Assembly (NCBI RefSeq): GCF_964213995.1 | Contig: NC_135830.1 | Coordinates: 6,262,001-6,326,000, forward strand | Reading direction: 5' to 3' | Source of the DNA: Mustelus asterias | Taxonomy: Eukaryota | Length of the DNA: 64,000 nucleotides | Part shown: in pieces, positions 27,360 through 56,665 of the stretch | Position numbering within the stretch: the stretch's first letter is position 1 | Layout of the letters: each line of letters begins with the position of its first letter | Notes under the pieces: generated by a model | What the model was told of the DNA's origin: nothing | The model's input: only the letters and a program-made list of their open reading frames with translations | Databases searched by the model: none | Position numbers and translations under genes: made by a program

Positions 27360-27953
27360 TCCCTACAGTTGCTGCAAGTCCCCAATTTCCCCCAGAATGA
27401 GAAAAGAAATGGAAAGGGGGAAACATTGATTTCCTCCCAGATGTTGTCCAGAGGAGGAAGTTTCACTCTGAAGCTCATTGGACAACATCTGCATTGTGAC
27501 GGCACAATGGAGTCCTGCCTGAATCAGCCAATAGGAATCACTCTGCTCCGCGGTGATGTCTCCGGGTTCCAGTCCGCAGGCCTGGGCGCGTGGACCCGGG
27601 AGCCCCGCCCCCACCCATTGTTCCCCTCCCCCTGCACCTCCTCGAGCCAAGATTTCCAGGCAACCGGCTGACGGCTCCGGACAGAGCGAGAAGCCGCTCG
27701 GTGATCTCCCCCTCCCCCCGGCCCGGGACTGTAAATGTGCGGGGGAAGGGAAGCTGCGCATGTGCGGGGGAGAGAGGAAGCTGTGCATGTGCAGGGGAGA
27801 GCCCACCCTCTGATCTTCATGCTGAGGTGTTGACCAATGGGAAGAGTTGGAGGACCGGAAGGACTCTGGTCCTCCAGCCAATCAGAGCGTGGGCTTTGTG
27901 TGAATGAAGATTGATCTTCAGACAGACTCAAACCTCCTCCTGTCTCAAACATC
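27360..27953. promoter_or_regulatory. Bidirectional ZNF promoter with two divergent exon-1 sequences; inverted paralogue of 56200-56760
   Basis: Shared GAGGTGTTGACCAATGGGAAGA..GGAGGACCGGAAGGAC.CTGGTCCTCCAGCCAATCAG block, CCAAT and GC boxes, TGCGCATG. Confidence 0.75.
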
Positions 27954-27960
27954 GGAGTTT

Positions 27961-28031
27961 GTTTCTGTAGTGAAGTGGCTTCACGTTCGCCTGAAACGCA
28001 GAAGTCCCCGGGTCAGAACCGGGCAGAAACT
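27961..28031 (+). pseudogene. tRNA-Val-derived pseudogene (anticodon position reads GAA)
   Basis: GTTTCTGTAGTGAAGTGGCTTCACGTTCGCCTGAAACGCAGAAGTCCCCGGGTCAGAACCGGGCAGAAAC aligns end to end with vertebrate tRNA-Val. The T-loop/B box is mutated. Confidence 0.8.
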
Positions 28032-28622
28032 TGGACTTGTTTCTCTGATACATCTGTGAGTAACACACTTTCTTTTTCCACCACAGTTTGTTCACAGGTT
28101 TTTGGCTTCCTGCAGGGAGGAAGGGAAGGGGGAAGGAAGGTGGGAGGTGAACGGTTGCCTGCCTGCCTGCCGCCTGGCCTGCCTGCCTCTGGAGGGTGTG
28201 CTCTCCCCGGAGGGAGGGAGGAAGAGAGGACGAGGAGTGACTGGAGAGGAGGGGGGGGCAAAGTCATTTCAGACTGTCTAATTTTTCCATCTGCAGTGGG
28301 GGGGGGGGGGGGGGGGGGCGGCGGGGGTGAAGATAACACAGACTTGAACTGTTTGCGCCCAACAGCGCCCCAAGACCCAAGTCCCCCACCCACTGCTGCT
28401 GACCCCAACACCGGCACCCCCTCCCCTCCTGACTGGGGCACCGGCCCCCCTCCGTGCCTTGTTGCTAGTCTTCCTCCTGCTCCTCTGACCTCCTCTCACT
28501 CCAGGGAGAGAGCACCTAGACCCCCATCCACCTACCCCACCCTCCCTTATTTTTCCCTCCTCTTATACACCCTGCCGTACATCTGGGCAGTCTCGGGGTG
28601 GGTGTAGCACTCCCTTGAAAGG

Positions 28623-29453
28623 ATGGCGACATCGCCAGCGTCGCCGGTGGCAGAGCCTTCTCGGCCCACCTATGCAGGCGTGGCGGCTGCCAGAGCCCCC
28701 GCCGCTCCCAAGGCCCTGCCGCCATTCTCTCTGATAACGAGACAGCTCGGGGTTAAGTGCTACGCCCACCCCGACATGTCTATCGAGGCCTGCGTCAAGG
28801 CAATGGCTGGGGTTGTCGGCCCCTCAGCCATTGTCGCGGCCTCAAAGATGTACGGCCGGGCCGTATTCTTTTTGAAGGCCGAGCAGGCGGTTCGCCTCGC
28901 CCTGGAGAGGGGGCTCACGGTGGGCGGGACGTTCCTGGCAGTGGACCCTTTGGAGGCCACCGCCCATAATATCATGATATCAAACGTCCCGCCCTTCCTA
29001 CCGAGTGAGCTCCTCCTCCCCCACCTCCATCTACTGGGGGAGGTCAGGTCCGGGGTGCAGCCGATCCCGCTCGGCCTTAGGGACCCCTCCCTGCGCCACA
29101 TATACTCCTTCCGGCGCCAGGTCTTTGTCCGCCTGGCCCGGGAGGAGGAACTGGAGGGAGGTTTCAGTATCCCCCATGAGGGGACCACGTATCGGGTCTT
29201 TTGGTCCGCGGACGGTGTGCGGTGCCATGCCTGTAAGGAGGCGGGGCACGTGCGGAAAAACTGCCCCGTCTCCAAGGCCGCCGACCGCCAACCCAAGGCA
29301 GCCGCAGCTGGCACCACAGCCCCCTCTCCCCCCAAACCAGTACCATCTGCCCCCCGCGAGGGGAGGCCACGCCGGCAGCAGCTGCCACCTCAGCTGCCGG
29401 CAGGGGGGGAGCGGAGCCTCCGCGTGGCCAAAAGGCCCAGAAGGGCGCAATAA
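28623..29453 (+). CDS. Tx1-type ORF1 (gag-like RNA-binding protein with CCHC knuckle); frameshifted low-complexity tail continues to ~30070
   Basis: VGPSAIVAASKM..AVFFL, ISNVPPFL, SFRRQVFV and CHACKEAGHVRKNC are typical Tx1 ORF1 motifs. Confidence 0.85.
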   Translation: MATSPASPVAEPSRPTYAGVAAARAPAAPKALPPFSLITRQLGVKCYAHPDMSIEACVKAMAGVVGPSAIVAASKMYGRAVFFLKAEQAVRLALERGLTVGGTFLAVDPLEATAHNIMISNVPPFLPSELLLPHLHLLGEVRSGVQPIPLGLRDPSLRHIYSFRRQVFVRLAREEELEGGFSIPHEGTTYRVFWSADGVRCHACKEAGHVRKNCPVSKAADRQPKAAAAGTTAPSPPKPVPSAPREGRPRRQQLPPQLPAGGERSLRVAKRPRRAQ

Positions 29454-30074
29454 AAAAGAAGGGGGGTACCGGGACCCCGGCCCCCAAGAAAGACACCCCA
29501 ACCACCCCGGCAGCCGGCTCGGGGACTGCCTCAGTCTCCACCTGCGCCCCCCCCCCCCCACCACCATCTGCCGGGCCCGTGGGCTCTCCGGGGCCAAGTG
29601 CTGGGTCCGGCGCTGCGGATGCCCAGGATCATGGGCCCGAGCATGGGGGGGGTTAGCGACCCCGAGCCGGCAAAACTGGCGACACCGCCACCTCGGGGGG
29701 ACGTGATGGGGGGTCAGGGGGGGTGCGGCAAGGCGAAGAGGGGCCTCACTTGCCCGAGAGCAGGTTAACAAAAAGAGGCGAGGCCCCTCGGGCACCGTAG
29801 AGTTCGAGGTCTGCGTGCCCCTCCCCCCTTGTGAGTCATCTCCTGCCGTGCCCCCACCTGTCTTTGTGCCTTGTCCCCAGAAAAAAGGGGGCAAGGCACC
29901 CTGTAAATCCAAGCATGTGCTGCCTCAGTCCCCCGGCGAGGAGTCTCCGGGGCCGGGTGGCAGCGGGGCCCCCACGGTTCCGTTCCACCCGGCCGGTTAC
30001 AACCCAGAGTTCTTCTTTAGCATGTCAGGGGACTGGGGCAACACCCCAATGTTCGTGTCCCTATCATCAGGTGG

Positions 30075-32235
30075 TCCACGGGAGGAGGCCAAGTGGGTGA
30101 CGGCCAGGAAGGGTAAAGCTCGGGTGATTGAGAGCACCCCGGTGGATGTGCCCCTACACAACAAGTACTCCTGCCTGAGTACTGTTGGGAGGGACAGCCC
30201 ACCTGGGGGAAGCAGCAGTGGCCGTGTCTCCGGGGTGGAGTCCGGCCCTGTAACTCAGAGGGCTAAAGAAAAGAGGGGAAGGCAGTATTAATCGGGGACT
30301 CGGCAGTCAGGGGGACGGACAGGCGATTTTGCGGAGGCAGGCGGGAGTCTCGCATGGTGGTCTGCCTCCCTGGGGCTGGGATTCAGGATGTCGCTGGGCG
30401 AGTCCCAGAAATCCTGAGGGGGGAGGGAGAGGAGCCGGAGGTAGCGGTACATATTGGTACCGCTGATGTGGGAAGGAAGGGGGAAGGGGTCATGAAAAAA
30501 GAGTATAGGGAATTAGGGAGACAGCTGAGGAGGAGGAAAGCAAAGGTAGTAATCTCAGGATTGCTGCCTGTGCCACGGGAAGGCGAGGACAGGAATGGAA
30601 TGAGGTGGAGGATGAATATGTGGCTGAGGGGCTGGTGCAGGGATTCAGGTTCCTGGACCATTGGGACCTCTTCAGGGGCAGGTGTGGCCTGCACACAAAA
30701 AATGGGTGGCACTTGAATCCCAGGGGAACCAATATCCTGGCAGGAAGGTTGGCTAAGGCTACTGGGGAGAGTTTAAACTCAATAGGTTGGGGGGAGGGGA
30801 TCAGAGTGAGGAAGTTAGCTCACAAACAGAGAAGGGTTATAGGCAGTGCAAGAGGATGGATGGACAGGGAATAGAGAAGGGGAGAGCTCAGACCAAAGGA
30901 TTGAGATGTGTTTACTTCAATGCCAGGAGTATAGTGAATAAAGGGGATGAGCTCAGAGAGTGGATCGATGCCTGGAAGTATGATGTGGTGGCCATTACGG
31001 AGACTTGGATGTCTCAGGGACAGGACTGAATACTCCAGGTGCCGGGATTCAGATGTTTCAGGAAGGACAGGGAGGGAGGCAAGAGAGGGGGTGGAGTGGC
31101 ACTGCTGATCAGGGATAGTGTCACAGCTTTAGAGAAGGTGTATGCTGTGGAGGGATTGTCCACCGAGTCTCTGTGGGTGGAGGTACAGAGTGCAAAGGGG
31201 CCGGTCACTTTGCTGGGAGTTTTCTATAGGCCGCCTAATAGTAACAGGGAGGTGGAGGAGCAGATAGGGTAACAGATCCTGGAGAGATGCAGTAATAGCA
31301 GAGTTGTTGTGATGGGAGACTTTAATTTCCCAAACATAGATTGGAATATCCCGAGGGTAAGGGGATTGGATGGGGAAGAGTTCATTAGGTGTTCAGGAGG
31401 GTTTCCTGACACAGCATGTGGACAAGCCTACTAGAGGAGAGGCTGTACTTGATCTGATACTGACCAATGAACCTGGACAGGTGTCAGATCTCTGTGGGAG
31501 AGCATCTTGGGGATAGCGATCATAACTCTATCTCCTTTAGGCTTGCATTAGAAAAAGAGGGGATCAGGCAAGCCAGGAAAGTGTTTATATGGAGTAAGGG
31601 GAAATATGAAGACATTAGACAGCAAATTAGAGGAGTAAATTGGAAGGAGGTATTCTCGGGGAAATGTACTGAAGAGAGGTGGCAGTTTTTCAAGGAATGT
31701 CTGTCTAGAGTTCTACAGAACAACGTTCCGAGCAGACAGGGAGGTGTTGGTCGGTTAAAGGAACCATGGTGCACGAAAGCTGTGCGGGACCTAGTCGAGA
31801 AGAAAAGGAAAGCGTACAAAAGACTCAGAGCTTGGCGAAGATAGGGATTTAGAAGAGTATACGACTTGTAGGAAGGGACTAAAGAAGGAAATTAGGAGAG
31901 CCAGAAGGGGTCACGAGAAGGCCCTGGCAGGTAGGATTAAGGAGAACCCTAAGGCGTTCTATAAATATGTGAAGAGTAAAAGGATGAGACGTGATGGAAT
32001 AGGGCCTATTAAAGGTGAAGGCGGGAAAATCTGTACAGAACCAGTAGAAATGGCAGAGGTGCTCAATGAGTATTTTGCCTCGGTTTTCAGAGAAGGACCT
32101 GGGTGGATGTACTGCGGGCTTGTGGTGGACTGAAAAGATTGAGTATGTGGGCTTTAAGAAAGAGGTTGTGCTGGAATCTTTGAATGGCATCAAGACAGAT
32201 AAGTCGCTGGGTCCGGATGGGATGTACCCCAGGTT
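30075..32235 (+). mobile_element. CR1 fragment: ORF1 esterase plus ORF2 endonuclease/linker, decayed
   Basis: VVCLPGA, VHIGT, VISGLLP (SGNH-like), then YFNARS, ITETW, GVFYRPP, GDFNFP. Confidence 0.9.
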
Positions 32236-32239
32236 CCTC

Positions 32240-34300
32240 GGCCTGGGGAGGTTTGTTGCTGGCTTTAAAAAGGGATTGCCTTGGAGGTTTCAGCCTCTGT
32301 TCCACAGAGAGAGCTGAGGGTAAGAGAGAGTGTTTTTTAGTGGAGATTTATTTATTTTTCAGTTAATTTTGTGCGTAAAATCGGAGGTTTTTTTTTTCAA
32401 AACCGGAAGTAGGCCTGGGGAGGTTTGTTGCTGGCTTTAAAAGGCAGGCAGCACTTACGAGCGGGCAGTGGAGCAAGTGAAGTAGAGTGGCAGCTGTCAG
32501 GGCTTTGGCTCACAGGGCTTGTGGGAAGCAGAGTGAGAGCTGTCAGGGCTTTGGCTCAGAGGGCTTAGGCGGTAAGGGCGAGGCAGGGCAAGTTATTTTT
32601 ATCCAAACCTATATAGGAAAAGGGTAACTATGAATGATAGGCCAGTTCTGTGCTTCCAGTGTGGGATGTGGGAGTTCCTGGAAACACCTAGCCTCCCGGG
32701 AGGACCACATTTGCGCCAGGTGCGTGGAACTGCAGCTCCTGAGGGACCGTGTCACAGAACTGGAGCTGCAGATTGCTGACCTTGGTCAAGTCAGGGAGAA
32801 TGAGAATAATTGACACGAGTTATAGGGAACTAGTTACACCGGGGCATCGGGAGGAAGACACGTGGGTCACAGTTAGGAGGAGTAAAGGTCAGAAGGGTAA
32901 TGTACCAGAGAGTATTCCAGTGGCTGTCTCTCATAATAGGAAGGGCTCGGCGACAGGTGTGAGAGGGGAGGGGAGTGAGCAATTAGTGGAGGGGTCACCT
33001 GTGGTTGTCCCACTCCAAAACAAGTATATTGTTTTGGATAGTGTGGAGGAGGATGACTCTCCAGGGGTAAGCCACAGTGACCAGGTCACTGGCACAGAGT
33101 CAGGCTCTGTGGCCCGGAAAGGAAAGAGAGGGGTTAGGAGACAAATAGTGGTGGGGGATGCGTCGGTTAGAGGCACGGACAGGCGATTCTGTGGGTGCAA
33201 ACGGGACTCCAGGATGGTAGTCTGCCTACCTGGTGCTGGGGTACTGGATGTCTCCAAGCGGATAGGAGGCATCTTAAAAAGCGGAAGATAAAGAAACGGA
33301 TGTCATTGTACACATTGGTGCAAATGACGTAGAAAGGAAGAGCAGGGGGATCCTACGAGAGCAATTCAGGGAGTTGGGAAATAGACTAAAAAGTAGGGCC
33401 TCCAGGGTGGCCATCTCTGGGCTGCTCCCAATGCCTCGTGCCAGTGAGGCTAAGAATAGGGAGTTAGTACAATTGAATGCTTGGCTAAAGGACTGGTCCA
33501 GGAGGGAGGGCTTCATTTTCCTAGTTCAATGGGAAGTTTTCAGGAGAGGATGGCACCTGTACAAGGAGGACGGGTCACAACTAAGTTGGAAGGGCACGAA
33601 TATCCTGGCTGGGAGTTTTGCTAGTGCAGTTCGGGGGGGTTTAAACTAGTATGGCAGGGGGGTGGGGATCAAAATATTAGGTCTACAAGTGTAGAGACTG
33701 GGGACGAGATTGGGGCTGGGACAAGGCTGGCAAAGAAGAAGTGCACTCTGGGGGAGGATGACCTCACTGGGCCTGGAGGTCTGGAGTGCTTATACTTCAA
33801 TGCAAGGAGCGTAGCAGGTAAGACAGACGAACTGAGGGCCTTAATGCTCACGAGGAATTTGGATGTGGTTGCAGTGACAGAGACTTGGTTGAAAGAGGGA
33901 CAGGACTGGCAGCTGAACATTCCAGGGTACAAGTGTTTTAGGTGAGACAGAGGAGGGGCCAAAAGAGGTGGGGGAGTAGCAGTATTAGTTGGAGAGCATA
34001 TTACAGCGGTGCAGAGGGAGGACAATTCAGAGGGGTTGTGTAACAAGTCACTCTGGGTGGAGCTTAGAAACAGGAAGGGTGCAGTCACTATGTTGGGAGT
34101 ATACTACAGGCCCCCCAACAGCCCAAGGGAAGTGGAAGAACGGATATGTCAGGAGATACTGGATAGGTGCAGGAAAAATAGGGTGGTTGTAGTGGGAGAC
34201 TTCAATTTCCCTGGTATAAACTGGAAATCGCTGAGAGCAGGGATTCTGAATGGGGAGGAATTTGTGAAATGCGTACAGGAGAGTTCTTTGGAACAATATG
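32240..34300 (+). mobile_element. CR1 5' half: 5' UTR, ORF1 and endonuclease start
   Basis: Highly similar to 34560-36370; frameshifted. Confidence 0.9.
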
Positions 34301-37300
34301 GCAGGGGGGTGGGGATCGACCTCTTTGTTTGACTGGAGTGAGACTGGGGGAGAGAGTCTTAGCAGGAGTGCTGAGAGTAAGCAAAGAAGTGATTTAATTA
34401 TTCATTTATGGGTATTCCTAGTATATTTTGCAGGCTTTTTTCAGGGTTTTGAATTGAGGAAGTGAGGTCAGCTGAAAGGGATTCTGGGAGGTTGAGTCTT
34501 AGTATAAAAGGCAGTTACCTGGGGGGTTCGCCGGGAGCATAAAAAGCCGGCTGCACTATACAGCGGGCAGCATCGGGAGCGGGCAGTGGAGTGAGTGGGT
34601 AGCAGAGTGTGAACTATAAGGGTTTTGGCTCACAGGGCTTAGGCTGAAAGGGCGAGGCAAGGCTAGTTATTTTTTACCCAACCCTATAAAGGATAAGGGC
34701 AGGTATGAGTGATCGGCCAGTTCAGTGCTTCCGATGTGGGATGTGGGAGTTCCTGCAAACACCTAGCTTCCCAGAGGTTCACATATGTGCCAGGTGCGTG
34801 GAACTGCAGCTCTTGAGGGACCGTGTCATGGAACTGGAGCTGCAGATCGCTGACCTTAGTCTAGTCAGGGAAAATGGGAGAAAAATTGACAGGAGTTATA
34901 GGCAACTAGTTACACCGGGGCATCGGGAGAATGACACGTGGGTCACAGTTAGGAGGAGTAAAGGACAGAAGGGTAAAGTACAAGGGAGGACTCCAGTGGT
35001 GGTCTCTCAAAATAGGAAGGGCTTGGTGACAGGTGTGAGAGGGGAGGGGAGTGAACAGTTAGAGGAGGGGTCACCTGTGGTTGTCCCACTCCAAAACAGG
35101 TACATTGTTTTAGATAGTGTGGAGGAGTGTGCCTCTCCAGGGGTAAGACACAGTGACCAGGTCACTGGCACACAGTCAGGCTCTGTGGCCCGGAAAGGGA
35201 AGAGAGGGGTTAGGAGAGCGATAGTGGTGGGGGATGCATCAGTTAGAGGCAGACAGGCGATTCTGTGGGGGCGAACGGGACTCCAGGATGGTAGTCTGCC
35301 TACCTGGTGCTGGGGTCACGGATGTCTCCGAGCGGATAGCAGGCATATTAAAAGGGGAAGATAAAGAAACAGATGTCATTATACACATTGGTGGAAATGA
35401 CGTAGATAGGAAGAGTCGGGGGGTCCTAAGAGAGCAATTCAGGGAGTTGGGAAATAGGTTAAAAAGTAGGGTCACTAGGGTGGCAATCTCTGGGCTGCTC
35501 CCAATGCCTCGTGCCAGTGAGGCGAAGAATAGGGAGTTGGTACAAATGAATGCCTGGCTAAAGGACTGGTCCAGGAGGGAGGGCTTCATTTTCCTAGATC
35601 AATGGGAGGTTTTCAGGAGAGGATGGCACCTGTACAAGAGGGAGGGGTCACAACTAAGTTGGAAGGGCACAAATATCCTGGCTGGGAGCTTTGCTAGTGC
35701 AGTTCGGGGGGGTTTAAACTAGTATGGCAGGGGGGTGGGGATCAAACTATTAGGTCTATAAGTGTGGAGGCTGGGGACGAGCTTGGGGCTGGGACAAGGC
35801 TGGCAAAGAAGAAGAGCACTCTGGGGGAGGACGACCTCACTGAGCCTGGAGGTCTGGAGTGCTTATACTTCAATGCAAGGAGCGTAGCAGGTAAGACAGA
35901 CGAACTTGGGGCCTTAATGCGCACGAGGAATTTGGATGTGGTTGCGGTGACAGAGACTTGGTTGAAAGAGGGACAGGACTGGCAGCTGAATATTCCAGGG
36001 TACAAGTGTTTTAGGCGAGACAGAGGAGGGGCCAAAAGAGGTGGGGGAGTAGCGGTATTAGTTGGAGAGCATATTACAGCGGTGCAGAGGGAGGACAATT
36101 CAGAGGGGTCGTGTAACGAGTCACTCTGGGTGGAGCTTAGAAACAGGAAAGGCGCAGTCACTATGTTGGGGGTGTACTACAGGCCCCCCAACAGCCCAAG
36201 GGAAGTGGAAGAATGGATATGTCAGGAGATACTGGATAGGTGCAGGAAAAATAGGGTTGTTGTAGTGGGAGACTTCAATTTCCCTGGTATAGACTGGAAA
36301 TCGCTGAGGGCAGGTACTCTGGATGGGGAGGAATTTGTAAAATGTGTACTGGAGGGTTCGTTGGAACAATATGTAGACAGCCCGACTAGAGAGGGGGCTA
36401 TACTGGACCTGGTACTGGGGAATGAGCCCGGTCAGGTCTTCAAAGTTTTGGTAGGGGAACATGTGACAAATAGGGACCACAATTCTGTTAGCTTTAGGAT
36501 AGTGATGGAAAAGGATGAGTGGTGTCCCAAGGGTAAGGTGTTGGATTGGAGGAAGGCTAACTTTAGTGGGATTATGCAGAAATTGGCAGCTGTTGATTGG
36601 GAGAGGCTGTTTGAGGATAAATCCACATCTGGCATGTGGGAGTCTTTTAAGGAACAGTTGTTAGGGCCACAGGACAGGCATGTGCCTGTAAAAAAGGATT
36701 GGATTCGAGAACTGTGGATAACCAGGGAAATTGAGGGACTGGTCAAAAAGAAAAAGAGGCGCATGTTAGATCCAGGCAGCTAAAAACAGAGGGAGCTCTG
36801 GAGGAATACAAAGAAAATAGGAAAGAACTCAAACGGGGAATTAGAAGGGCAAAAAGGGGTCACGAAATGTCCTTGGCAGACAGGATTAAGGAGAATCCAA
36901 AGGCATTTTATTCATACGTTAGGAACAAAAGGGTTGTCAGGGGGAAAAAAAAAAATCAGACCTCAGGGACAAAAGTGGGGAATTATGCTTGGAGCCCAAA
37001 GAAGTAGGGGAGATCCTAAATGAATACTTTGCGTCGGTATTCACAATGGAGAGGGATGTGTTGACTGGGAGTGTCTCAGAGGGGAGTGTTGAACCGTTGG
37101 AGAAAATCTCCATTACAAGGGAGGAAGTGTTAGGTTTGTTAGAGAATATAAAGACTGACAAATCCCCAGGGCCTGATGGAATCTATCCAAGGCTGCTCAG
37201 GGAGACGAGAGATGAAATCGCTGGGCCTCTGACGCAAATCTTTGTCTCGTCACTGGGCACAGGCGAGGTCCCAGAGGATTGGAGGATAGCTAATGTGGTC

Positions 37301-38640
37301 CTGTTAGTTAACCCGGGTAATTATAGGCCGGTGAGCTTGACGTCCGTGGTGGGGAAGTTGTTGGAGAAGATTCTTAGAGATAGGATGTATGTGCATTTAG
37401 AAAGGAATAAACTCATTAACGATAGTCAGCATGGTTTTGAGAGAAGGAGGTCATGCCTCACTAACCTGGTGGAGTTTTTTGAAGAAGTGACCAGAATGGT
37501 TGACGAGGGAAGGGCCGTGGATGCCATCTATATGGACTTTAATAAAGCATTTGACAAAGTCCCTCATGGTAGGTTGGTGAAAAAGGTTGGATCTCATGGG
37601 ATAAAGGGGGAGGTGGCTAGATGGGTGGAGAACTGGCTTGGTCACAGAAGACAGAGGGTGGTAGTGGAAGGGTCTTTTTCCGGCTGGAGGCCTGTGACTA
37701 GTGGTGTTCCGCAGGGCTCTGTATTGGGACCTCTGCTGTTTGTGATTTATATAAACGATCTGGAAGAAGGTGTAACTAGGGTGATCAGTAAGTTTGTGGA
37801 CGACACAAAATTGGCAGGACTTGCAGATAGTGAGGAGCATTGTCAGAGGCTACAGAAGGATATAGATAGGCTGGAAATTTGGGCAAAGAAATGGCAGATG
37901 GAGTTCAATCCTGATGAATGCGAAGTGATCCATTTTGGTAGAAATAATGTAAGGAGGAACCATAATGGGTGTAGATATGCAGAGGGACCTGGGTGTGCAA
38001 GTCCACAGATCCTTGAAGGTGACGTCACTGGTGGAGAAGGTGGTGAAGGCGGCATATGGCAAGTTGGGGTCTGATGTTGCAGATGTATAGAACGTTGGTT
38101 CGGCTGCATTTGGAATAATGTGTCCAGTTCTGGTTGCCACACTACCAGAAGGACATGGAGGCTTTGGAGAGAGCACAGAGGAGGTTTACCAGGATGTTGC
38201 TTGGTATGGAGGGGGGCTTAGTTATGAGGAGAGATTGGGTAAACTGGGGTTGTTCTCCCTGGAAAGATGGAGGATGAGGGGAGACTTAATAGAGGTGTAT
38301 AACATTATGAAAAGGCATAGATAGGGTAAACGCTGGGAAGCTTTTCCCCAGGTCGGTGGTGACGTTCACGAGGGGTCATAGGTTCAAGGTGAAGGGGGGG
38401 GGCGGTTTAACACAGATATCAGAAGGACATATTTTACAGAGGGTGGTGGGGGCCTGGAATGCACTGCTAGGCAAGGTGGTGGAGGCAGACACACTGGTAA
38501 CGTTTAAGACTTATCTAGATAGCCACATGAACGGAGTGGGAATGGAGGGATACAAAAGAATGGTCTAGTTTGGACCAGGGAGCGGCACGGGCTTGGGGGG
38601 CCGAAGGGCCTGTTCTTGTGCTGTATTGTTCTTTGTTCTG
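34300..38640 (+). mobile_element. Near full-length CR1 (HER1-like) LINE, frameshifted
   Basis: ORF1 zinc-finger/leucine zipper (34705-) and esterase (to 35722); APE endonuclease (35764-36783); RT (36989-38074); tail GTATTGTTCTTTGTTCT. Confidence 0.95.
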
Positions 38641-38789
38641 TGGGAGACGAGGGAAGAAATTGCAGAGCCTCTGGCGATGATCTTTGCGTCGTCGATGGAG
38701 ACGGGAGAGGTGCCGGAGGATTGCAGATGTGGTTCCTATTTTCAAGGGGAATAGGGATAGCCCAGCTAATTACCGACCGGTGAGTCTAA

Positions 38790-39535
38790 CCTGGCTGTTC
38801 ACTGGAAAACTCATTCGGTTGTGTGTGTGTCTGTGCTTTTCCACGGGGCCGGCCATCCGGCACACGGCCAAAGCCATCCCAGACCTTAGGACGGTCGTGC
38901 TCGGCCCCGAAACTGCACGCAAACTCGAGGCGGCGCAGGCGTGCGGTGGGATCCCGCCCGAGCGTTGGCCGGCCTTTTTGCCGCCGGGTGGCGGAGGTCC
39001 CCGCTGGAGGTCCCTCTACGGAGGGATCTCCCCCAATTACGTCGGGGACCTGGGGTGGAGGGTGATGCATGCAGCAGTTCCGCACAACCGTAGGATTCAC
39101 TGGTTCACGGGCTCCGAAGACTGCCCTTTCTGTGGCCTTGTGGAGTCCGTGGACCATGTCTATGTTTTGTGTCTTCGGCTGCACTCCCTTTATGTTTTCC
39201 TGAAGAACCTTTTATTGATGTTCTGTTTGCACTTCAGTCCCACGCTCCTGATCTACGGACACCCGGTGCGGAGAGGGGAGGGTCAGGATGGCGACCTCCT
39301 CGTGAACCTGCTCCTGGGCCTGGCGAAACGTGCCATTTACCGGTCCAGGCAGCGGGCGATCGAGGGGGCCGTCCATCCTGACTGTCTGCCCCTCTACCGC
39401 AGCTATGTTCGCAGCCAGGTGTCCCTGGAGAGGGAGCATGCGGTGTCCACGGGCAAGGTTGACACCTTCCGCGTCCGTTGGGCACCGCAGGGGTTGGGGT
39501 GCATTATTGACCCTAATAATCACATTTTAATTTGA
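38790..39535 (+). pseudogene. Tx1 ORF2 C-terminus (RT-associated zinc-binding region)
   Basis: WRSLY...GDLGWRVMHAAV...CPFCGLVESVDHVYVLC.RL...NLLLGLAKRAIYRSR. Confidence 0.85.
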
Positions 39536-39684
39536 TGTTTAAGTTTCCTTTGTACTTTGATTTCTGTTCGGGCTGTTCCCCCTCCTTCTGGGGAGCTGCC
39601 CCTTTTACTTTGTCCTGATTTAACCCGAGTTTGTTTATTTGGTTTGACCTAAAAAGAGCCCAACATCTGTGAGTAACACACTTT

Positions 39685-40021
39685 AGAGCTTGCTTGCTGG
39701 AGACGCCCGTTTTCTATCGTTTCTGCCGATTTGTTGGCTTCCTGCAAGGAGGGAGGAAGGGGGAGGAAGGTGAGCTATCGCCTGCCTGCCTGCCGTCTGC
39801 TGGAGGGTGCTCTCTCCCTGGAGGGAGAGAGGGAAAGAGGACACGGAGACACTTTCTTTGTTTACTTTTTTCCACCGACGGGAGGGAAGACTGCACAGCC
39901 TCCTCGTATCAACATCAGGGGACTGAGTGGGGCTGATGCCCTCATCAGAAGGTCGGTGCCTGAAAGGGAGGTTTGCGGGGGGGAGAAAATTTAGACTGTT
40001 TTCCATCTGCAGTGGGTGGGT

Positions 40022-40052
<31 letters not shown>

Positions 40053-40195
40053 GAAGACACCCTGGACTTAGTTTGCGCCCAAGAGAGCTGGAAGAGTAAA
40101 GTCCCCCCACCCACTGCTGCTGCCCCCAACACCGACACCCACCCCCCCTCCCCCCTCCTTCCTCCTGACTGGGGCACCGGCCCTCCTCAGTGCCC
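39685..40195 (+). mobile_element. Second Tx1-type element, 5' UTR only, starting directly after the target copy
   Basis: Colinear homology to 28072-28460: TTGGCTTCCTGCA, GCCTGCCTGCC, TTTTCCATCTGCAGT-polyG-TGAAGA, CCTCCTGACTGGGGCACCGGCCC. Confidence 0.8.
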
Positions 40196-40624
40196 TGTCC
40201 CTTGGGTGCGATCTACACCTGCGTCCTTGCAGATTGCCACTTTACTGAAACCCGGGAATGGCGGTGATCCGCTTCGCTCCCAAAACAGGTGCAATGGCGA
40301 TTTAAATTGAATTAATGAACTGCCCGCCCAACTTTCAGCATTTCCCCCTTTACCACCCCGTTTGCCAATCCGGAACCGCGCCGTAATGGACCTGCTCAAT
40401 AAAAGTCTGAATCGGGGCTCCAGCTTCTGAAGAGTGCGTTCAGTGTTTCCAACGGCTCTCTGACTCAGATCAGTGGTGTGGGGGGGGGGGGGGGCGGGGG
40501 AGGAGGGTCAGATCATTCTCTGGTTGTGGGGGGGGGGGGTGGAGGGTCAGATCATTCTCTGGTTGGGGGGGGGTGGAGGAGGAGGACGATCGGTCTGGGT
40601 AACGGGGTGGTGGGGGGGAGGGTG

Positions 40625-41489: not shown

Positions 41490-42302
<813 letters not shown>

Positions 42303-43530: not shown

Positions 43531-43659
43531 AAGGCCCAAGGAATTTGCTTTGCTAATTGAGGCCAACACCGGGTGTTTATAAAGCCTCACCATCCACCCA
43601 CCAACTCCATTTATGTTTCCAGTTTTATTTCGGGCTCTGCATCCGCACTCAGTCTTTGT

Positions 43660-46710: not shown

Positions 46711-46739
46711 AAAAATCCCCATTTAAAACCCGCTCGCTC

Positions 46740-47360: not shown

Positions 47361-47800
47361 GCTCAGCCACTGGAGGATGGTTCACATCAGAGGATGGGGG
47401 AGGGGGACAATAAATAAGAGGTTACACTTTGGCCTCAAATCAATGAGGACTCTGATCTCTGGGAAGGAAGGAAACCCTGGGAGGTGGGCGGGGAGGATTC
47501 ACAAACACCCGCTGGAGGCCCCAACACCCCCAATAAGACCCATTGGTTTTATTGTCAGTCTGCAGACAGGAGCTGGAGAACTGAACACAGACAGAGGAGA
47601 GGGAGGGAGAAAACTGGGAGTGGAGGAAAAGAAATGGTGAGATGGGTTTGGATTTCAGCCCAGGGAGGAGGGAGAGTGTGTGGGACAGGGAATTACAGAT
47701 TTGGGGGAACAAGGGAGGAAAAAATGATCCAGAGAAACAAGAATTGTCTGTTTTGATTTGTTTTCCTACACTGACAGTGATTTTGTAAACTTCTTTTGCA

Positions 47801-48400
47801 GAATATTTGAAGTGGAAGTTTTACAGACAGGAAACTCAACTCAAAATTCTTACTAATATTTCACAGTTGCTCGATTTATCAGCACATGAACACCGTCAAC
47901 CTTTGAATGTGGGAGGACAAATGTTTCTCTGTTCTGTCTGTGGGAAAAGATTTCAAACATCAGTGTGACTGGAAAAGCACCGAGACACATGCACACACCG
48001 GAGTGAGAGCGTTCCATTGAACCGACTGTGGAAAGAGCTTTAACCAGTTACACAGCTTGAAAAAATATCACACCATTCAAAGTGAGGTGAAACTGTACCT
48101 GTTCTGTGTGCAGGTGAATCTTGAACTGATTGTCCAACCTGGAGAGACACAAGGATACTGGCACCATGGAGAAAAGATGGAAATGTGGGGACTGTGGAAG
48201 GGATTCCGTTGCCCGTCTGACCTGGAAACTCATCAACGGGTTCATACTGGGGAGAGACCATTAACCTGTTCCACATGTGGGCAGGGATTTAGCAAGTCAT
48301 CCACACTGGGGAGAGGCCGTTCACCTGCTCTGTGTGCGGGAAGGGATTCACTCAGCTATCCAGCCCGCAGGCACATCAGCAAGTTCACGAGTGATTACAA
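47801..48400 (+). pseudogene. ZNF pseudogene
   Basis: Acceptor TTTTGCAG, family leader, ACCATGGAGAAA start, and a few frameshifted or deleted fingers. Confidence 0.8.
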
Positions 48401-48661
48401 GGGTTGAATTCTGCTGTTATTGTTTCTGCTCTCAGTTACATCAGGACTGCATTTTGTTAATTCTTATTGTTCGCCAATGGGCAGGGTCGGATAGTTTCTT
48501 TCTACTGGACTGGCCGGTCTCACGACTTTGCTTCCAGTGGGCTGATGCGCTTTGAGCCTGTGAGAGCACATTTCCACTGAAATGATCCACAAAAGCTGGT
48601 GAAGCACATTTATTTTATCCTGGGTCGTAAATAGTATTTTTCCACCCATTACAGGGAGATC

Positions 48662-49272
48662 TAAAATAAATACAGAAAGTGTGGAAAAACATGGCAGGTC
48701 TGGCAGCATCTGTGGAGAGAGAAACAGAGATAATGTTTCACGTCCAATGTAACTCTACTTCAGAACTAAAGAGGGGGAGAAATGTGATGGGTTTGATGCT
48801 GGTGAGAAAGGGGGGAGGGGCAGGTAGAACAAAAGGGAAAGTCAGGGATTGGTTAGAGGGCGGGTGAGATTAAATGACAAAAATATCCCGGAACCCAAGG
48901 CAAAGGGAGAGGTAATGGTTGTGGTAAAGAAACAAAGCATTGGTCCAGAGTAAGTGTTATTGGCAGAATAAAGGACAGCTCTGTCTGGAAGCAAAAAAAC
49001 ATGAAAACAAGATGCAGACTGGCACTCGGCAAAAAACAACAAATCAAAATGGAGGAGAGGGTTCAGGGTGTGAAGTTGTTGAGTCCAGAAGGCTGTAAAG
49101 TGCCTCATCGGAAGATATGGGGCTGTTTGTCCAGCTTGTGTTGGGCTTCTCCGGAACATTGCAGCAGGCCGAGGACAGAAATGTGAGCGTGAGAGCAAGG
49201 TGGTGAATTCTAATGGCAAGCAAGCGGAAGGTCAGGGTCATGCTTGTGGACTGAGCGGAGATGTTCCACAAA
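48662..49272 (-). mobile_element. Penelope-like element 3' fragment (second family), decayed
   Basis: A minus frame reads EHLRSVHKHDPDLPLACH..SPPCSH..ISVLGL...GTLQPSGLN (GIY-YIG C-terminus). The terminus matches 14412-14540, 50695-50822 and 51890-52063. Confidence 0.75.
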
Positions 49273-51889
49273 GAGAGCAGGGAACAGGCTACAGATGAAT
49301 TAAAGAGAAACCATTTGTGTCCAGAACATTGTGAACATCCTTTTACTCTAGTTGTCTATGGTCCTCAAGTCATTTTCTGTTTGTTTTAACCATGTTCTGT
49401 TTCATTAATACATTTTATCAGTAAAAATATTTGATTTTTCTGGTCTTTTCCTGATTGATGCACTTTCGGAAAAGTGGGTGAGAGGGGTTGGCAGGCTCTT
49501 TAACAGAAAGTGAGTCCCTCTAAGGTAATTGGCAAAGTGGCCAGAGGGGGAGATGAGATTTTATTTTATTATTTGACACAGCGAGTTGTTCTGATCTGCC
49601 TGAAAGCAGATTCAATAGAATCTTTCCAAAGGGTAAAGACTTGAAGGGAAGAATTTGCAGGACTGTGGGAACAGGGCAGAGTGGTAGCATGAATCCTTTC
49701 AAAGAGATAGCAGGGGCATGATGGGCTAAATGGACTCCTGCATCCTGTCAATCTCAGTCTCCTGCTTTTGTGCAGGTTAGAAGGGTAGATTTCAGTGCAG
49801 CCTCTTCCCTGTATCTGTATTTAAAGAGACAGGTTTCTCTTTCGCTCTGAGAGACAGATATAACAATTGGTTGGAGGCCCATTTCCCACTCAGTCCTCCA
49901 GCACTTCCCTGTCTCTCTATTAGTGCAATCCCTATGGCAGTTTCTCAACTGCGGCGCAGGCCTCGTTATTCTGAGCTAAATTCAGCCCTCAGCTCCGTCA
50001 CCTGGCTGTCATTGACATGAGCAATAGAGAGACAGAAAGGTGCCCCAGGCTCAAATGGGAAGTCGAAACACAGGACTTTAAATGAACTGTTAGCATCTCT
50101 CTAACGATCGATAATTTTAAAAAATGAATTCTAAACCCAGTGAGTAAATTAAAGAATCACACGACAAAACTTCAGGTTTTATGATGTTTACTCCAACAAA
50201 CTGGAAGCAACAATGATTAAACACTGTTCTTTGTAGGGAACATTGCCCTTAAACTAAAAAATTGAACTTTGCCCTTTTACTCTTAACACAATGAAATATC
50301 CCACTCAACGGTTATATTTTACTCTGCCTTGGAATGTTGACACTCAATTCTCCAAGATTGAGTCCAAAGTGATTCTTTACTCCCAGAGGGTTTATTTCCA
50401 TTGTTTTCCTTTTCCAGTCTGACAACCTTTAATCCCAGAACTGTCCTTCACAGTGATGGTTCTCCTGGACATTTTCCCACTAACACAAGCAAGGCGAATC
50501 TTCCAGCCTTGTTTTGCAATTTTCAGGAATTTGTTACCAAATTCGATATAGGAGCAGCAGTAGGCCATTTGGCCCTTTGAGTCTGCTCCACCATTTATTT
50601 AGATCATGGCTGATCTGTTTGTGTGGAGTTCCACATTCTCATTCTACAGCCGATACTTTTGATTCCCTGATACAATAAGAATTGGGATAACGGCAATATT
50701 CTGCTGTTGCTGGAATCTGAAACAGAGACAGAAGATGCTGGAGAATCTCAGCAAGTCTGACAGCATCTGTAGAGAGAGAATAGAGACAACATTTTGAGTC
50801 AGGATGAATCTTTGTCAGCTGAAGACAAGGAAAATTGGACAAAAGTTATACTGTAAGGGTCAACAATTGGGAAGCAATCTATTAAACCTCCTCTGAACCA
50901 CTTTCAATGCATTTGTATCATTTCTTAAATGGGAGACAAAAACTACATCCAGTTTTCAAGATGTGGCCTCAGCAATGCCCTGTATAACTGAAGTATAACA
51001 TCTTTACTTCTATGTTCAATTTTTCTCGGAATAACGGATTGTATTCCATTTGTAAGAACTTTGATTTATTTGAACTAAGATTTATGGGGGTTCTCTTATT
51101 TACGATAACCTCCCTCATCGTAAATCACACCAGGTTCCAGTGACTTAACCATATGGCAAGAAAGAACACTTTAAATGGTGAATTCAGAAAGTTTATTCAC
51201 CATTAAAAATGCACCAAGTCAGAAAGATAAAAAACAAAGTATCGATTAAGAGTTAATAAAGAAAGCTTTACTTTAACAATTGAACAGACTTCTCTCCCTC
51301 TCAGACCAGGACATGAAGTGACGGCTCTGAAAATGGGGATAACTTGTAAAACCAACAGCTCTCAACACCTCTATGTAAACATCTCTCCCTCCACCTCTCT
51401 CTACCAAAGTGGCTTCTCAAGACCACTTTTCAATCCTTTAAAAATGTCAAACAGCTACCTCAGCAAATTCCCATAAATCTTCAATTATAAACTAAAACAT
51501 ACATGAGTTTTCAGGCAATTTAAAAACAAATGAGGTGTGTGCTGAAAGGGTGAACTTTTCTACAGAATCTAAAGGGGTGGGGGGTGAGCAGCAAAAACTT
51601 GGCACACAATTACATCACTTTACACAAGTTTAAAAAACTTCTCTAACAATAAAACAAACTTGATTTTAAACTTCATCTATTAATTTTTTTGTTATATTCC
51701 TCACCTTAATTATTTTAATATGATCAGTTTTTGTTAGGGATGGGTAACTTCTGTTCTTTATAAACTGGTTCACTCATTTTTAAAAATTCTATATGGGCTC
51801 GGAGAATCAGAACCCAGAATTTATCACCCTTACCCTGTTTATCTTTTTGCCACCACTCCCTCTATTTTGATTAAACATTTTATCGTAAA

Positions 51890-52063
51890 AGTTAAATACT
51901 GCGGATGCTGGAATCTGAAACAAAAACAGAAAATGCCAGAACATCTCAACAAGTCTGACAGCATCCGTGGAGAGAGAACAGAACCAATGTTTCGAGTCTG
52001 GATGATCCTTCATAAGCGCTCTTACGAAGTGTCATCCAGACTCGAAACGTTGGTTCTATTCTC
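51890..52063. mobile_element. Penelope terminus with inverted pair of degenerate hammerheads
   Basis: GAACCAATGTTTCGAGTCTGGATGA...TCATCCAGACTCGAAACGTTGGTTC palindrome. Confidence 0.7.
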
Positions 52064-52889
52064 GAATCATTTAATCGATAAGTTTCTTGTTCTTAGTTTC
52101 CAAATAGCAGGTAAGAGACCTGTCCGGTTCCCACTTGAGCTCTGATTTTTCACTGGCCATGCTTGGGTAGGATTATAACCATTAGAATCTACTCTCAGAG
52201 GTCCACTTTTCAGTGCAGTGCTACTTGGAGTATACCGTCACCACCGACTATTGGGTCACAAGTCCCTCACAGTTCTTATCACAAATTTAGGATAAATTGA
52301 TTTAAACAATGCATGAGAATGCTTCTTAATTTTTTAGTCAACTGTTGATTGTTGATTGGTCAGACCCCCTGTTCACAGATTTGGTATCTCAGCCGCTGAA
52401 CAAATTTACCTCTAACTCTTCTGAGTAAATATTCTCACCAGGTCCTCTATCGGGGCCCTGCTAAGCAGCTTAATGGTCCGTGATTGCAGAAACTGAGCAG
52501 TCATACGAATGTGGTCAAGATAGTCCAGTCCCATAATGCCTCACATTCAATCTGCTGTCCTTCAATTATAACAGAATATGTGGCTGTATGTAGCTGCCTC
52601 GGCCGTGGTCAACCCCAACACTGCCTTCCTGAACTGCTGCAATGCCTGAGGTGTCAGTACATCCACAGTGCTGTTAGGGAGGGATTTCCAGCTACACATT
52701 CCAGACTTTCACTAGACTGTAGGTGGATACCAGATTGATATATTCCATTCAACCACACCCAAGGTGAGTTATTCCAATTCCTTTATTGTCCAGGACAATA
52801 TATTTACAATATCTTTAAAACAGAAATTAAACATTCCCATTTGATTTCAGGTATTAACATATTCTGTTAGTTTGTTCTTTATTGTCAAT

Positions 52890-53190
52890 GTCAGGCTGGG
52901 GTTGGTCCCCTTGGAGCAAAGGAGGTTGAGGGGAGATTTGATAGAGGTAGACAAGATTCTGACAGGTTTAGATAAGGTGGACAAAGAAAAGCTGTTCCCA
53001 TTTGCTGATGGGACATGGATGAGGGGGTCACAGATTTAAGGTTTTGGGTCAGAGATGCAGGGGGGGGGTGGGGGGGATGTGAGGAAGAATATTTTGATGC
53101 AGCGAATGACCTGGAACTCGCTGCCTACGAGGGTGAAGGAAGTGGAGACAATAAACAATTACAAAGGAAATTGGATGGGCATTTGGGAGG
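52890..53190 (+). mobile_element. Old CR1 3' fragment
   Basis: GGAGGTTGAGGGGAGATTTGATAGAGG (RRLRGDLIE) and WNSLP-like coding. Confidence 0.7.
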
Positions 53191-53450
53191 TTTCAAACAG
53201 AAATGCTGACTAAATATCTCTGAACTTCCTAACATCCTGTCACTCTGTGATCCTTGTGAAATTTGAAACCAGGTATTCGCAACAAGACTCAAAGAGCATC
53301 AGCCCACTGGAGGCAAAATCATGAGACCGACCAGTCCAACAGAAAGAAACCCTCCGACCCTCCCCATTGACCAACTGTGAGAATGAATAAAATGCAGTTC
53401 TGGATGTAACTGAGAGCAGGAACAACAACAGCAGAATCCAACCCCTGGAA

Positions 53451-54377
53451 TCACTCGTGAACTTGTTGGTGTCTCAATAGGGCAGATGAAACACTGAATG
53501 CCTTCCCACATTGAGAGCAGACGAATGGCCTCTCCCCTGTGTGAACTCGCTGGTGTTTCTGCAGGCTGGATGAGTCAGTGAATCTCTTTCCACAATGAGG
53601 GCAGGTGAATGGCCTCTCCCCAGTGTGAATTCGCAGGTGTTTCTGCAAGTTGGATAAGTCAGTGAATTCCTTCCCACACTGAGAGCAGGTGAACGGTTTC
53701 TCCCCAGTGTGAACTCGCTGGTGTATCTGCAGGATGGATAATTGAGTGAATCGTTCCCCACATTGAGAGCAGGTGAACGGTTTCTCCCCAGTGTGAACTC
53801 GCTGGTGTGTCCGCAGGTGGGATGACTGAGTGAATCCCTCCCCACACTGAGGGCAGGTGAATGGCCTCTCCCCAGTGTGAACTCGGTGGTGTGTCTGCAA
53901 GCTGGATAACTGACTGAATCCCTCCCCACACTGAGAGCAGGTGAATGGTCTCTCCCCAGTGTGAACTCGCTGGTGTGTCCGTAGGTTGGATAACTGACTG
54001 AATCCCTTCGCACACTGAGAACAGGTGAATGGTCTCTCCCCAGTGTGAACTCGCTGGTGTGTCCGCAGGCTGGATGACAGAGTGAATCCCTTCCCACACT
54101 GAGAGCAGCTGAATGGCCTCTCCCCAGTGTGAACTCGCTGGTGTGTCCGCAGGTTGGAAAACTGACTGAATCCCTTCCCACACTGAGGGCAGGCGAACGG
54201 TCTCTCCCCAGTGTGAACTTGCTGGTGTCTCTGCAGTCTGGATGATAAAGTGAATCCCTTCCCACACACAGAGCAGGTGAACGGCCTCTCCCCAGTGTGG
54301 CTGCGCCGATGAATTTCCAGATCAGATGGAGCTTTGAATCCTTTCCCACAGTCCCCACATTTCCACGGTTTCTCCAT
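53451..54377 (-). CDS. Tandem C2H2 zinc-finger protein, 11 fingers, no KRAB domain seen
   Basis: Intact ORF from ACCATGG ([14 protein letters not shown]) with 11 fingers and canonical linkers. Acceptor TTTTACAG at ~54720. Confidence 0.92.
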
Positions 54378-54989
54378 GGTGCGGGTGTCCTTGTGACTCT
54401 CCAGGTTAAACAATCAGTTAAAACTCACACAGAACACAAGTACAGTCTCTCCCCACTGAATGCTGCGATGTATTTTCGGGCTGTGTATCTGGTTAAAGCT
54501 TTTTCCTCAGTGCACTGGAACACTCTCAATTGAGTGTGTCTGTGTCTTGGTGCTTTTCCAGTGATGCTGATGTTTAAAATCTTCTCTCGCAGACAGAACA
54601 GAGAAACATTTCTCCTTCTAGATTCAAAGGCTGATGATATTCAGGTCCAGATGAATTGAGTGACTCTGTCAGTTATTTGGTTTGAGATTTCTGTCTGTAA
54701 ATCTTCACCTTCTGATATCCTGTAAAAGGAGTTTATAAAAGCCATCAGTGTCAGTGCAGGATAGAAATTCAGAACAGACAGTTCTAGTTTCTATGGAACA
54801 TTCTTTCCTCTCTCATTCCCCAAAAGCTGTGAATCTCCATCCCACACACTCTCCCTTCATTCTCACTCTGCTGTATCTAATATTCACCCTCCCAATTCTC
54901 CTGAAGGTACTGATTGAGGCTGATTGACAGATCCATGCTCACTGCTTTCTGTCCAGCACAGAAATCAGAACATAAAGGAGCTGCAATCA

Positions 54990-55338
54990 GCAATTCGGCC
55001 CATCGAGTCCGCTCAACCATTCATAGAATCATGGAATCTACAGTCCGGAAGGAAGGCATTAGGCCCATCGAGCCTGCACCAACAACAATCCCAACCAGAT
55101 CCAATCCCCGTAACCCCCCATATTTACCCTTCGAATCTCCTAACATTAAGGGTCAATTTATCATGGCCAATCAATCCAATCCACACATCTTTGGATTGTG
55201 GGAGGAAACCGGAGCACTGGAGGAAACCCACGCAGAGATCATGCAAACTCCACACAGACAGTGACCCAAGCCAGGAATGGAAGCCAGGTCCCTGACGCTG
55301 TGAGACAGCTGTGATAACCACTGAGCCACCGTGCCGCC
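54990..55338 (-). mobile_element. HE1 SINE
   Basis: Head ends GCCACCGTGCCGCCC; HER1-type tail. Confidence 0.8.
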
Positions 55339-55915
55339 CAGATGTACCTGAGCACCATTTTCCCCACAGTATCCCCTGGATCCCTTGATATCTTGAATAA
55401 ACCGATCAAACCCTCACTTGAAAATTCTTGATGACTGAGCTTTACAGTCCTCTGAGGTAAAGAATTCCAAAACTTCACCACATCCTTGAGTGAAGAAATC
55501 CCACCTCATCTTCGCTTTCTTTCCAAATAAATGTACTTTATTGCAGGACCATAAATAAAATCTAATCTGTACAATAGAACAAAACTAGACATATCTCTGT
55601 CCTATATTAGTTTATTGTTCCCTTAAATGTCAGCCATCTCCGGTGGAAACCAGCCTTTAAATGTGAACATCAGGAAAGAGACCATCCTTTTAGCCAGATA
55701 AATAAATGAGTCAAGCTGAGGAAGCAAAGGATGTCAATGTCTTTAAGAGAGAGACCTGGGCCAACCTTTCCTGAGTCTGCAGCCTCCCTGGATTCACTTC
55801 CTTTCCCTTCAGTTGCTGCAAGTCCCCAATTTCCCCCAGAATGAGAAAAGAAATGGAAAGGGGTGGGGGGGGGGGGGGGGGGGGGGGGAGAAAGTGTGTT
55901 ACTCACAGATGTTGG

Positions 55916-56033
55916 CCTCTTTTAAGGTCAAACCAAATAAACAAACTCAAATTAAATCGGGACAAAGTAAAAGGGGCAGCTCCCCAAAAGGAGGGGGAGC
56001 AGCCAGAACAGAAATCAAAGTACAAAGGAAAAA
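55916..56033 (-). mobile_element. 5'-truncated Tx1 3' UTR, same family as 39545-39659
   Basis: Minus strand TTTCCTTTGTACTTTGATTTCTGTTC...GAGTTTGTTTATTTGGTTTGACCTTAAAAAGAG, followed by CCAACATCTGTGAGTAACACACTTT. Confidence 0.9.
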
Positions 56034-56045
56034 GCGAGATGTTGG

Positions 56046-56207
56046 TCTCTTTTAAGGAAATAAGTGATAAATAAGTTATCCGCCAGAGTTCGATGTCATC
56101 TGACCGCTTGTTTGGAGAATAAAACATACTTAGGTACCTCGCTTCATCTGGGATATGAAGCATAATCCTCAGAAGTGTGATTCATGTCATCTAAAATAAC
56201 TCACTTC
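56046..56207 (-). mobile_element. Possible second short insertion at the same target
   Basis: Ends CCTTAAAAGAGA, followed by CCAACATCT (56037-56045). The body is not recognisable. Confidence 0.5.
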
Positions 56208-56665
56208 AGACAGGAGGAAGTTTCAGTCTGTGTGCAGCTCAATCTGAGCGTCACAAAGACCTGATTGGCTGGAGGACCAGTGTCCTTCCGGTCCTCCAGG
56301 TCTTCCCATTGGTCAACACCTCAGTATGTAGGTCAGGATGCGGGCTACCCCGCTCATGCGCAGTGTCCCATTTCCCCGGACATGCGCAGTCCCGGGCCGG
56401 GGGAAATCTCCAAGCGGCTTCTCGCTCCCGCCAGCCGGCTGTCTGCAAACCTTGGCTCGAAGATGTGCAGGGGGAGGGGGAACAATAGGTGGGGGCGGAG
56501 CTCCCGGGTCCTCGCGCCTGCGCACTGGAACCCCATGACGTAATTGCGGAAGAGACTGATTCTTATTGGGTCATTCAGGCAGGCTCCATTGTGGACGTCA
56601 CAATGCGGAAGCTCGATTGATTCAGATTCAGACTCAAAACTTCCTCTGTACAACATCTGGGAGGA
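56200..56665. promoter_or_regulatory. Bidirectional CpG promoter and exon 1s for the ZNF genes at 53.4 kb (minus) and 57.2 kb (plus)
   Basis: Head-to-head layout with CCAAT boxes, a GC box, CATGCGCA x2 and GGACGTCACAATG; paralogous to 27360-27953. Confidence 0.75.

Follow-up and report, generated by a model that had tools for sequence, protein, structure and literature searches.

A 64-kb stretch of the Mustelus asterias genome (contig NC_135830.1, positions 6,262,001 to 6,326,000; hereafter the window) lies within a cluster of C2H2 zinc-finger (ZNF) genes arranged as divergent pairs. At two loci of the window, the 3' end of a Tx1-clade long interspersed element (LINE) stands directly before the same short sequence of these genes. 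Feature coordinates are collected in Table 1, and loci fetched from elsewhere in the 3.68-Gb genome are denoted by L-numbers. The initial annotation of the window, made from its letters, had placed the Tx1 3' end against CCAACATCTGTGAGTAACACACTTT at both loci, described both as hit in tandem and considered the two GGGAGG-variant sites empty. All of these placements were confirmed, including the second 5' untranslated region (UTR) piece and the second junction at 56037–56053. The Tx1 3' ends at the two loci were 93.6% identical over 141 nt. The 5' edge was revised: the motif at 28050–28071, previously taken as the element edge and as part of a long target-site duplication (TSD) of 22–25 nt, is a target copy lying inside the element, which begins at about 27954, behind a TSD remnant. 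The TSDs observed were 8–17 nt or absent.

The window Tx1 copy is dead: it keeps a 5' UTR, a broken first open reading frame (ORF1) and the tail of ORF2, and CR1-type pieces replace its endonuclease and reverse transcriptase (RT). Natural near-full copies elsewhere are approximately 7.1 kb long and consist of a tRNA-like head, a 5' UTR with GCCT repeats, ORF1, ORF2 and a 3' UTR that terminates in AAAAAGAGG with no poly(A). ARAGORN called a tRNA-Val in 6 of 16 head loci. Most head-bearing copies carry a target copy with a GTGAGTAAC-type motif about 20 nt behind the head, inside the 5' UTR (CTAACATCTGTGAGTAACAC in L178). ORF1-type frames of 700–760 aa precede ORF2 in L170 and L177. ORF2 showed 47% identity to Xenopus Tx1 ORF2 over 99% of a 775-aa query (60% in the RT) and 50% identity to a sea-turtle protein; residues 1–1291 of the Xenopus ORF2 align on natural copies. 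An RVT_1 domain was matched with an E-value of 1.6e-33, and L1 endonuclease structures matched an APE endonuclease at the ORF2 N-terminus (E 1e-13 to 1e-17). In the RT tree that the initial annotation had proposed, rooted with CR1, the element grouped with proteins of turtles and with Xenopus Tx1 in a clade of seven rows (support 100/99), a ray sequence being the nearest named relative and an alligator TX1 protein lying outside the clade. On the basis of the RT grouping and the two-ORF structure, we concluded that the element is a Tx1-clade LINE of the Tx1L lineage. In one copy (L130, G000:C23:4781000-4784999), the 5' UTR GCCT repeat is expanded beyond 4 kb, and 13 Tx1 3' ends lie in a tandem repeat with a period of about 680 bp at G000:C4:68681754-68700990.

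Exact 3' ends were counted genome-wide in two variants, A (n = 709) and B (n = 202), 911 in total. The 9-mer CAACATCTG adjoins 122 of them (13.4%), namely 58 variant-A ends (8.2%) and 64 variant-B ends (31.7%). Reversed-pattern controls gave 0 matches, indicating that the junctions are not due to chance. All 98 flanked ends inspected were ZNF sites (the 58 of variant A and 40 of the 64 of variant B), and an estimate for random DNA gives some 28,000 chance copies of the 9-mer. The tabulation of 3' flanks suggested by the initial annotation thus yielded the expected flank for a part of the ends, the remainder being mostly dispersed short fragments at SCA(A), where S is G or C. Among the first 30 variant-A ends in contig order, 29 were dispersed and short (median 326 nt); their sites begin with SCA in 27 cases, SCAA in 20 and SCAAC in 5, the fifth base being at background level. 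Three dispersed copies have TSDs of 14–15 nt starting with GCAA, and others have no TSD or small deletions. Since these TSDs start with GCAA, the motif is part of the target, and the core motif at all sites is SCA(A).

The head pattern had 77 matches in the genome, 68 of them with ACAYC immediately upstream. Of 72 heads inspected, 70 either occupy the ZNF site or immediately follow another insert at it, with approximately 15 distinct junctions judged by eye; the two exceptions, L192 and L195, have no Tx1 5' UTR after the head. No head was found on contigs C1–C5, where all of the first 100 variant-A 3' ends listed lie. Full-length copies form head-to-tail arrays on C12 and C23. In short, copies with a complete 5' end occur almost exclusively at the ZNF site, often in arrays, and short 3' fragments are also scattered.

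The element end stood directly before 389 of the 1434 target 16-mers in the genome, about a quarter. Occupancy differed between site variants, with 24 of 445 GGGAGG sites filled versus 365 of the 989 others (GT class). The view of GGGAGG as a non-target is rejected by the 24 filled sites; as these paralogues are hit, a GT donor is not required for insertion. All 24 have G before CAACATC, and G or C occupies this position in 247 of the 445. The A found there may explain why both window sites of this variant are empty, an argument that is circular if the base derives from element RNA.

The 58 variant-A ZNF sites resolve into 18–19 distinct 5' junction classes, of which six lie in the GGGAGG arm, whose upstream promoter differs, and 28 short variant-B sites resolve into eight classes (40 were inspected, the other 12 being longer). 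Under a null model in which any SCAR site is equal, 0.0065 events were expected at the ZNF target versus 18 counted, an enrichment of about 2,800-fold. Micro-inserts of 13–16 nt with 14-nt TSDs were observed at L065, L166 and L181. Read joints skipping the whole element occurred in runs X1, X4 and X7, and hence empty sites exist in these samples. A tree of 3' ends (70 rows, 525 columns; 3 of 73 were dropped, namely an inverted piece, a nested-LINE end and a place fetched twice) showed ZNF-site and dispersed copies intermingled, with 15 changes versus a shuffled mean of 20.8, and was star-like, 7 of 66 branches being starred. As this tree is weakly resolved, independence is argued from the junctions, from insertions in two promoter arms, and from the arrays and the micro-inserts with TSDs. 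From these we consider it very probable that the ZNF site was targeted by independent events. The central proposal of the initial annotation, that a Tx1-clade element has a protein-coding ZNF family as its target, is sustained by the RT tree, the junctions and the enrichment, a single position in that family having been hit many times by separate events. The full account, in which a LINE of about 7 kb and Tx1L lineage made many separate insertions at one nucleotide of the ZNF family and was tolerated by splicing, has in our estimate a probability of roughly 75%.

Several results weigh against this account. The target flank is absent from 789 of the 911 exact 3' ends, so that the description "sequence-specific" holds for the 5'-complete copies and not for the ends as a whole. 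The initial annotation had named unrelated 3' flanks in most copies as evidence against its proposal; taken literally this is what was found, and the enrichment nevertheless survives. By a rule that more than 20% of flanks should carry the target, taken from the available part of PMC4494074, variant B and the 5'-complete copies lie above the threshold, and variant A and the two variants together lie below it. The SCAR null takes no account of chromatin access or selection. Duplication inflates the counts: about 50 of the 77 heads have a junction in common, preceded by an almost identical exon, and look like one amplified event. An approximately unbiased test did not reject the ZNF-site copies as a single clade (p = 0.106). 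GGGAGG genes are filled even though a GT is absent from their site; in the amplified AGAGAGG group, the internal GTGAGT is lost and GAAG/GTGAGC is retained. Finally, no copy with both ORF1 and ORF2 unbroken was present among 15 long loci inspected.

Some of these results would be explained by a weakly specific SCAA element that made a few chance or local-hop hits in ZNF genes, the rest being due to segmental duplication and gene conversion: 58 sites reduce to 18–19 junctions, most heads are alike, one clade is not rejected and dispersed copies make up most 3' ends. However, duplication copies junctions and makes none, and at least 26 distinct truncation junctions lie at one nucleotide in both promoter arms; the identical base also carries an unrelated element, besides arrays and micro-inserts. 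This explanation is largely refuted already and is highly improbable. The target could also belong to a transposon-like unit carrying ZNF arrays, which would reduce the case to the known pattern of Tx1 on transposons. Tx1L, counted as the nearest named relative, targets the DNA transposon Tx1D, and the ZNF units are highly duplicated. The target 16-mers are, however, clustered (C12 at 54.3–55.1 Mb, C23, C71 and small contigs, among the first 100 of 1434 listed), and the units possess a promoter-like region, a conserved AG acceptor and open C2H2 frames. We consider a transposon-borne target very unlikely.

For separate insertions at the ZNF site, the following steps are proposed. The element inserts at one nucleotide about nine bases 5' of the likely first splice donor, where its endonuclease would nick the site and target-primed reverse transcription would follow, as the biochemistry of Tx1L suggests; the Tx1L endonuclease is sequence-specific in vitro (PMC1950540, in the part available). 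Since chance 9-mers escaped insertion and the match at dispersed sites is limited to four bases, the preference probably extends beyond the 9-mer; recognition of longer flanks is the most likely basis, possibly aided by open promoter chromatin. Subsequent gene duplication has multiplied many of the filled genes. The extra specificity might instead come from RNA, if a read-through transcript with a target tail, made from source copies that sit within the target and lack poly(A), guided the element and the internal target copy aided 5' joining by pairing. The 3' end is indeed without poly(A), the 5'-complete copies do lie in the target, headless copies are joined exactly at the shared motif (L063, L188, L238 and window 39660), and specificity is reportedly strengthened by co-transcription with the target (available part of PMC4494074). 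Against guidance by RNA, dispersed sites match four bases at most, SCAAC being no more frequent than background, and chance 9-mers outside ZNF genes escaped; it is also compatible with endonuclease recognition rather than exclusive of it. We regard it as possible though rather unlikely.

Judging from its sequence, the target site is probably a splice donor, likely the end of the first exon. The coding frame begins in an exon downstream of it, and open frames of 320 aa and at least 302 aa remain in two filled genes. A donor-like motif is retained in most insertion types. Tolerance by the host may therefore be due to a non-coding exon 1 and a surviving donor, which could be provided by a 14-nt TSD copying CT/GTGAG upstream, by short inserts sparing the downstream donor, or by the internal donor-like copy behind the head. 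As most full-length copies have a donor-like copy of their own, the element would leave with intron 1 by splicing. Transcription of the whole element by RNA polymerase III was rejected because of T6 runs after the head; since such T-runs would stop this polymerase, full-length RNA would be made from the ZNF promoter. Among the 15 of 433 read joints listed for L178 (three presumed-RNA runs and one other), there was no joint from exon 1 to the acceptor. A search for processed ZNF copies gave six matches, five of which were plainly genomic acceptors and one unrelated-looking. A bolder version, which we hold tentatively and think doubtful, is that the element is a self-hiding intron passenger that homes to the first exon-intron boundary of ZNF genes, borrows their promoters, carries a captured donor restoring the host mRNA and has a non-coding partner at its site. 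If so, and if these ZNFs repress transposons like related fish families, the very genes of host defence would have been colonised by the element. In zebrafish, retroelements are repressed by ZNF families (PMC10547256, the available part of which does not mention sharks), and a link to host defence is possible.

An element without ORFs, 1.25–1.9 kb long with an internal 620-nt duplication and the end AAAAGAAA, also occupies the ZNF target site, has a 14-nt TSD and is often arrayed; CARCATC adjoins 106 of its 245 exact ends. That it is a deletion product of Tx1 was rejected, as blastn did not match it to the element portion of L169 and tblastn gave nothing under E 0.2. Because the site is common to both, the ORF-less element was presumably moved by the Tx1 enzyme. 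Arrays of 1.87-kb partner units with 14-nt TSDs between units were seen at L187 (G000:C71:13571000-13580999) and at G000:C140:316000-336000, with at least 11 ends on C140; partner arrays on C13, C19 and C26 lie outside the ZNF site. At L129 (G000:C23 near 4329500), a 245-nt Tx1 3' fragment with a 17-nt TSD lies within a partner element.

Chimeras with small RNAs were also observed. L039 (G000:C1:112239585-112242609) holds two tandem chimeras of a U2 small nuclear RNA (snRNA) 5' piece and a Tx1 3' fragment of about 400 nt, the 3' tail of the upstream one being different. These suggest template switching onto small RNAs, a possible source of the tRNA head. At L192 (G000:C23:32599746-32600446), a tRNA-Val-like start is joined to a U2-like piece (Rfam U2, 42.9 bits), with no Tx1 5' UTR. 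At L082/L096 (G000:C89 near 2115800), the intron behind a filled site contains, some 60 nt from its start, a U2 5' piece joined to other sequence; similar non-U2 sequence stands upstream of the U2 pieces in L039, a hint of a repeat family associated with U2.

Tx1L of Xenopus laevis (Swiss-Prot YTX2_XENLA) resembles the present element in its APE endonuclease, RT and target preference. Its target is the piggyBac-type Tx1D, whereas here it is a host ZNF gene family, and the tRNA-Val-like head, the internal target copy and the many dispersed short copies distinguish the present element from it. Keno, Kibi, Koshi and others likewise combine the Tx1 clade with a multicopy target, which for them is U2 snRNA genes or microsatellites. 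The trypanosome elements ingi and RIME belong to a LINE clade other than Tx1 and live in hosts of another kingdom. In them, as here, a LINE and its non-autonomous partner have a common hot spot in a multigene family that encodes protein, with several elements per site; their insertions fall within the RHS coding regions and produce pseudogenes (available part of PMC7563717), whereas the present site lies upstream of the coding exon and open ZNF frames remain in at least two filled genes. The crocodilian Tx1-Mar and SINEU, in the part of PMC4494074 available, share with the present system a partial preference (13–90% of flanks there), tandem inserts around the TSD, ends with TSDs, truncations or blunt joints, a target-sharing non-autonomous partner and small-RNA heads at 5' ends; their targets are transposons and microsatellites, unlike the ZNF genes here. 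According to a list from 2022, LINEs target RNA genes, spliced leader exons, microsatellites, telomeres and other transposons, with no protein-coding family in the available part (PMC8869645). A literature search, with subscription journals and Repbase Reports mostly outside its scope, returned no report of Tx1 targeting ZNF genes. The suggestion of the initial annotation that a protein-coding family is an undescribed LINE target is thus borne out for Tx1 within that search, and trypanosome RHS is a precedent outside Tx1 (PMC7563717).

Known Tx1 targets being RNA genes, microsatellites and other transposons, a hot spot that a vertebrate LINE uses with single-base precision in a family of protein-coding transcription-factor genes would add a target class for Tx1. 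As roughly one in four of the target sites counted is filled, the element would have shaped hundreds of ZNF genes at their 5' ends. One family with precise and scattered insertions, and with occupancy varying by site variant, offers a natural series for studying how APE-type LINEs achieve precision beyond a 4-base motif.

Table 1 Features of the two Tx1-bearing loci and neighbouring ZNF genes (positions in the window)
Feature	Position	Strand	Remarks
Empty GGGAGG-class target of divergent ZNF gene	27431..27449 (site at 27446)	-	A, not G/C, precedes CAACATC
Shared divergent promoter/first-exon region of ZNF gene pair (probable)	27449..27945		76% like 56205-56749
5' TSD remnant CAAACATC, equal to ZNF target position	27946..27953	+	
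Element 5' end: 7-nt leader and tRNA-Val-like head	27954..28031	+	Rfam RF00005 at 27961-28031, 41.6 bits, E 1e-5
Internal target copy/predicted splice donor in element 5' UTR	28050..28071	+	Motif at equivalent place in most heads
Remaining 5' UTR with GCCT-type repeats	28072..28622	+	
ORF1, broken (stop at 29451), CX2CX4HX4C knuckle	28623..30061	+	90.6% to L169, a natural copy
Nested CR1-type LINE pieces (esterase, endonuclease, RT); Tx1 endonuclease and RT missing	30062..38843	+	
Tx1 3' part: C-terminus of ORF2, then 3' UTR with the end AAAAAGAG(G) and without poly(A)	38844..39659	+	tblastn, Xenopus Tx1 ORF2 residues 1117-1292, E 6e-25
Target copy CCAACATCTGTGAGTAACACACTTT separating first element from second 5' UTR piece	39660..39684	+	
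Second Tx1 5' UTR fragment, headless (tandem hit)	39685..40200	+	Comparable headless joins: L063, L188, L238
Open C2H2 ZNF frame of doubly hit gene, 320 aa	53451..54413	-	11 zf-C2H2 stretches; acceptor-like TTTTACAG near 54720
Target CCAACATCTGTGAGTAACACACTTT with predicted donor CT/GTGAGT, continuing into family intron	55891..55915	-	
Tx1 3' fragment of ~120 nt, 5'-truncated	55916..56036	-	94.9% to L169
9-nt TSD CCAACATCT	56037..56045	-	
162-nt insert ending in Tx1 tail CTTAAAAGAG; second hit, one shared site	56046..56207	-	
Empty GGGAGG-class target of divergent ZNF gene	56651..56666	+	A precedes CAACATC

Both filled window loci are themselves duplicated: the junction type at 39.66 kb recurs in 10 of the 58 variant-A sites, and the double hit at 55.9 kb is present in at least 12 inspected loci. 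The likeness of the 162-nt insert to the Tx1 tail is confined to its last 12 nt or so. A Pfam search of the window ORF1 gave no match, and the 5' part of the nested CR1-type LINE is duplicated (1.78 kb, 92%; window 32521-34300 and 34595-36373). The ZNF exon 3' of the insertion at 27.9 kb (window 47790-48400) looks degraded, with a short array and a frame break, and this filled gene may be a pseudogene. A long minisatellite with a 25-bp unit lies at window 17070-19160.

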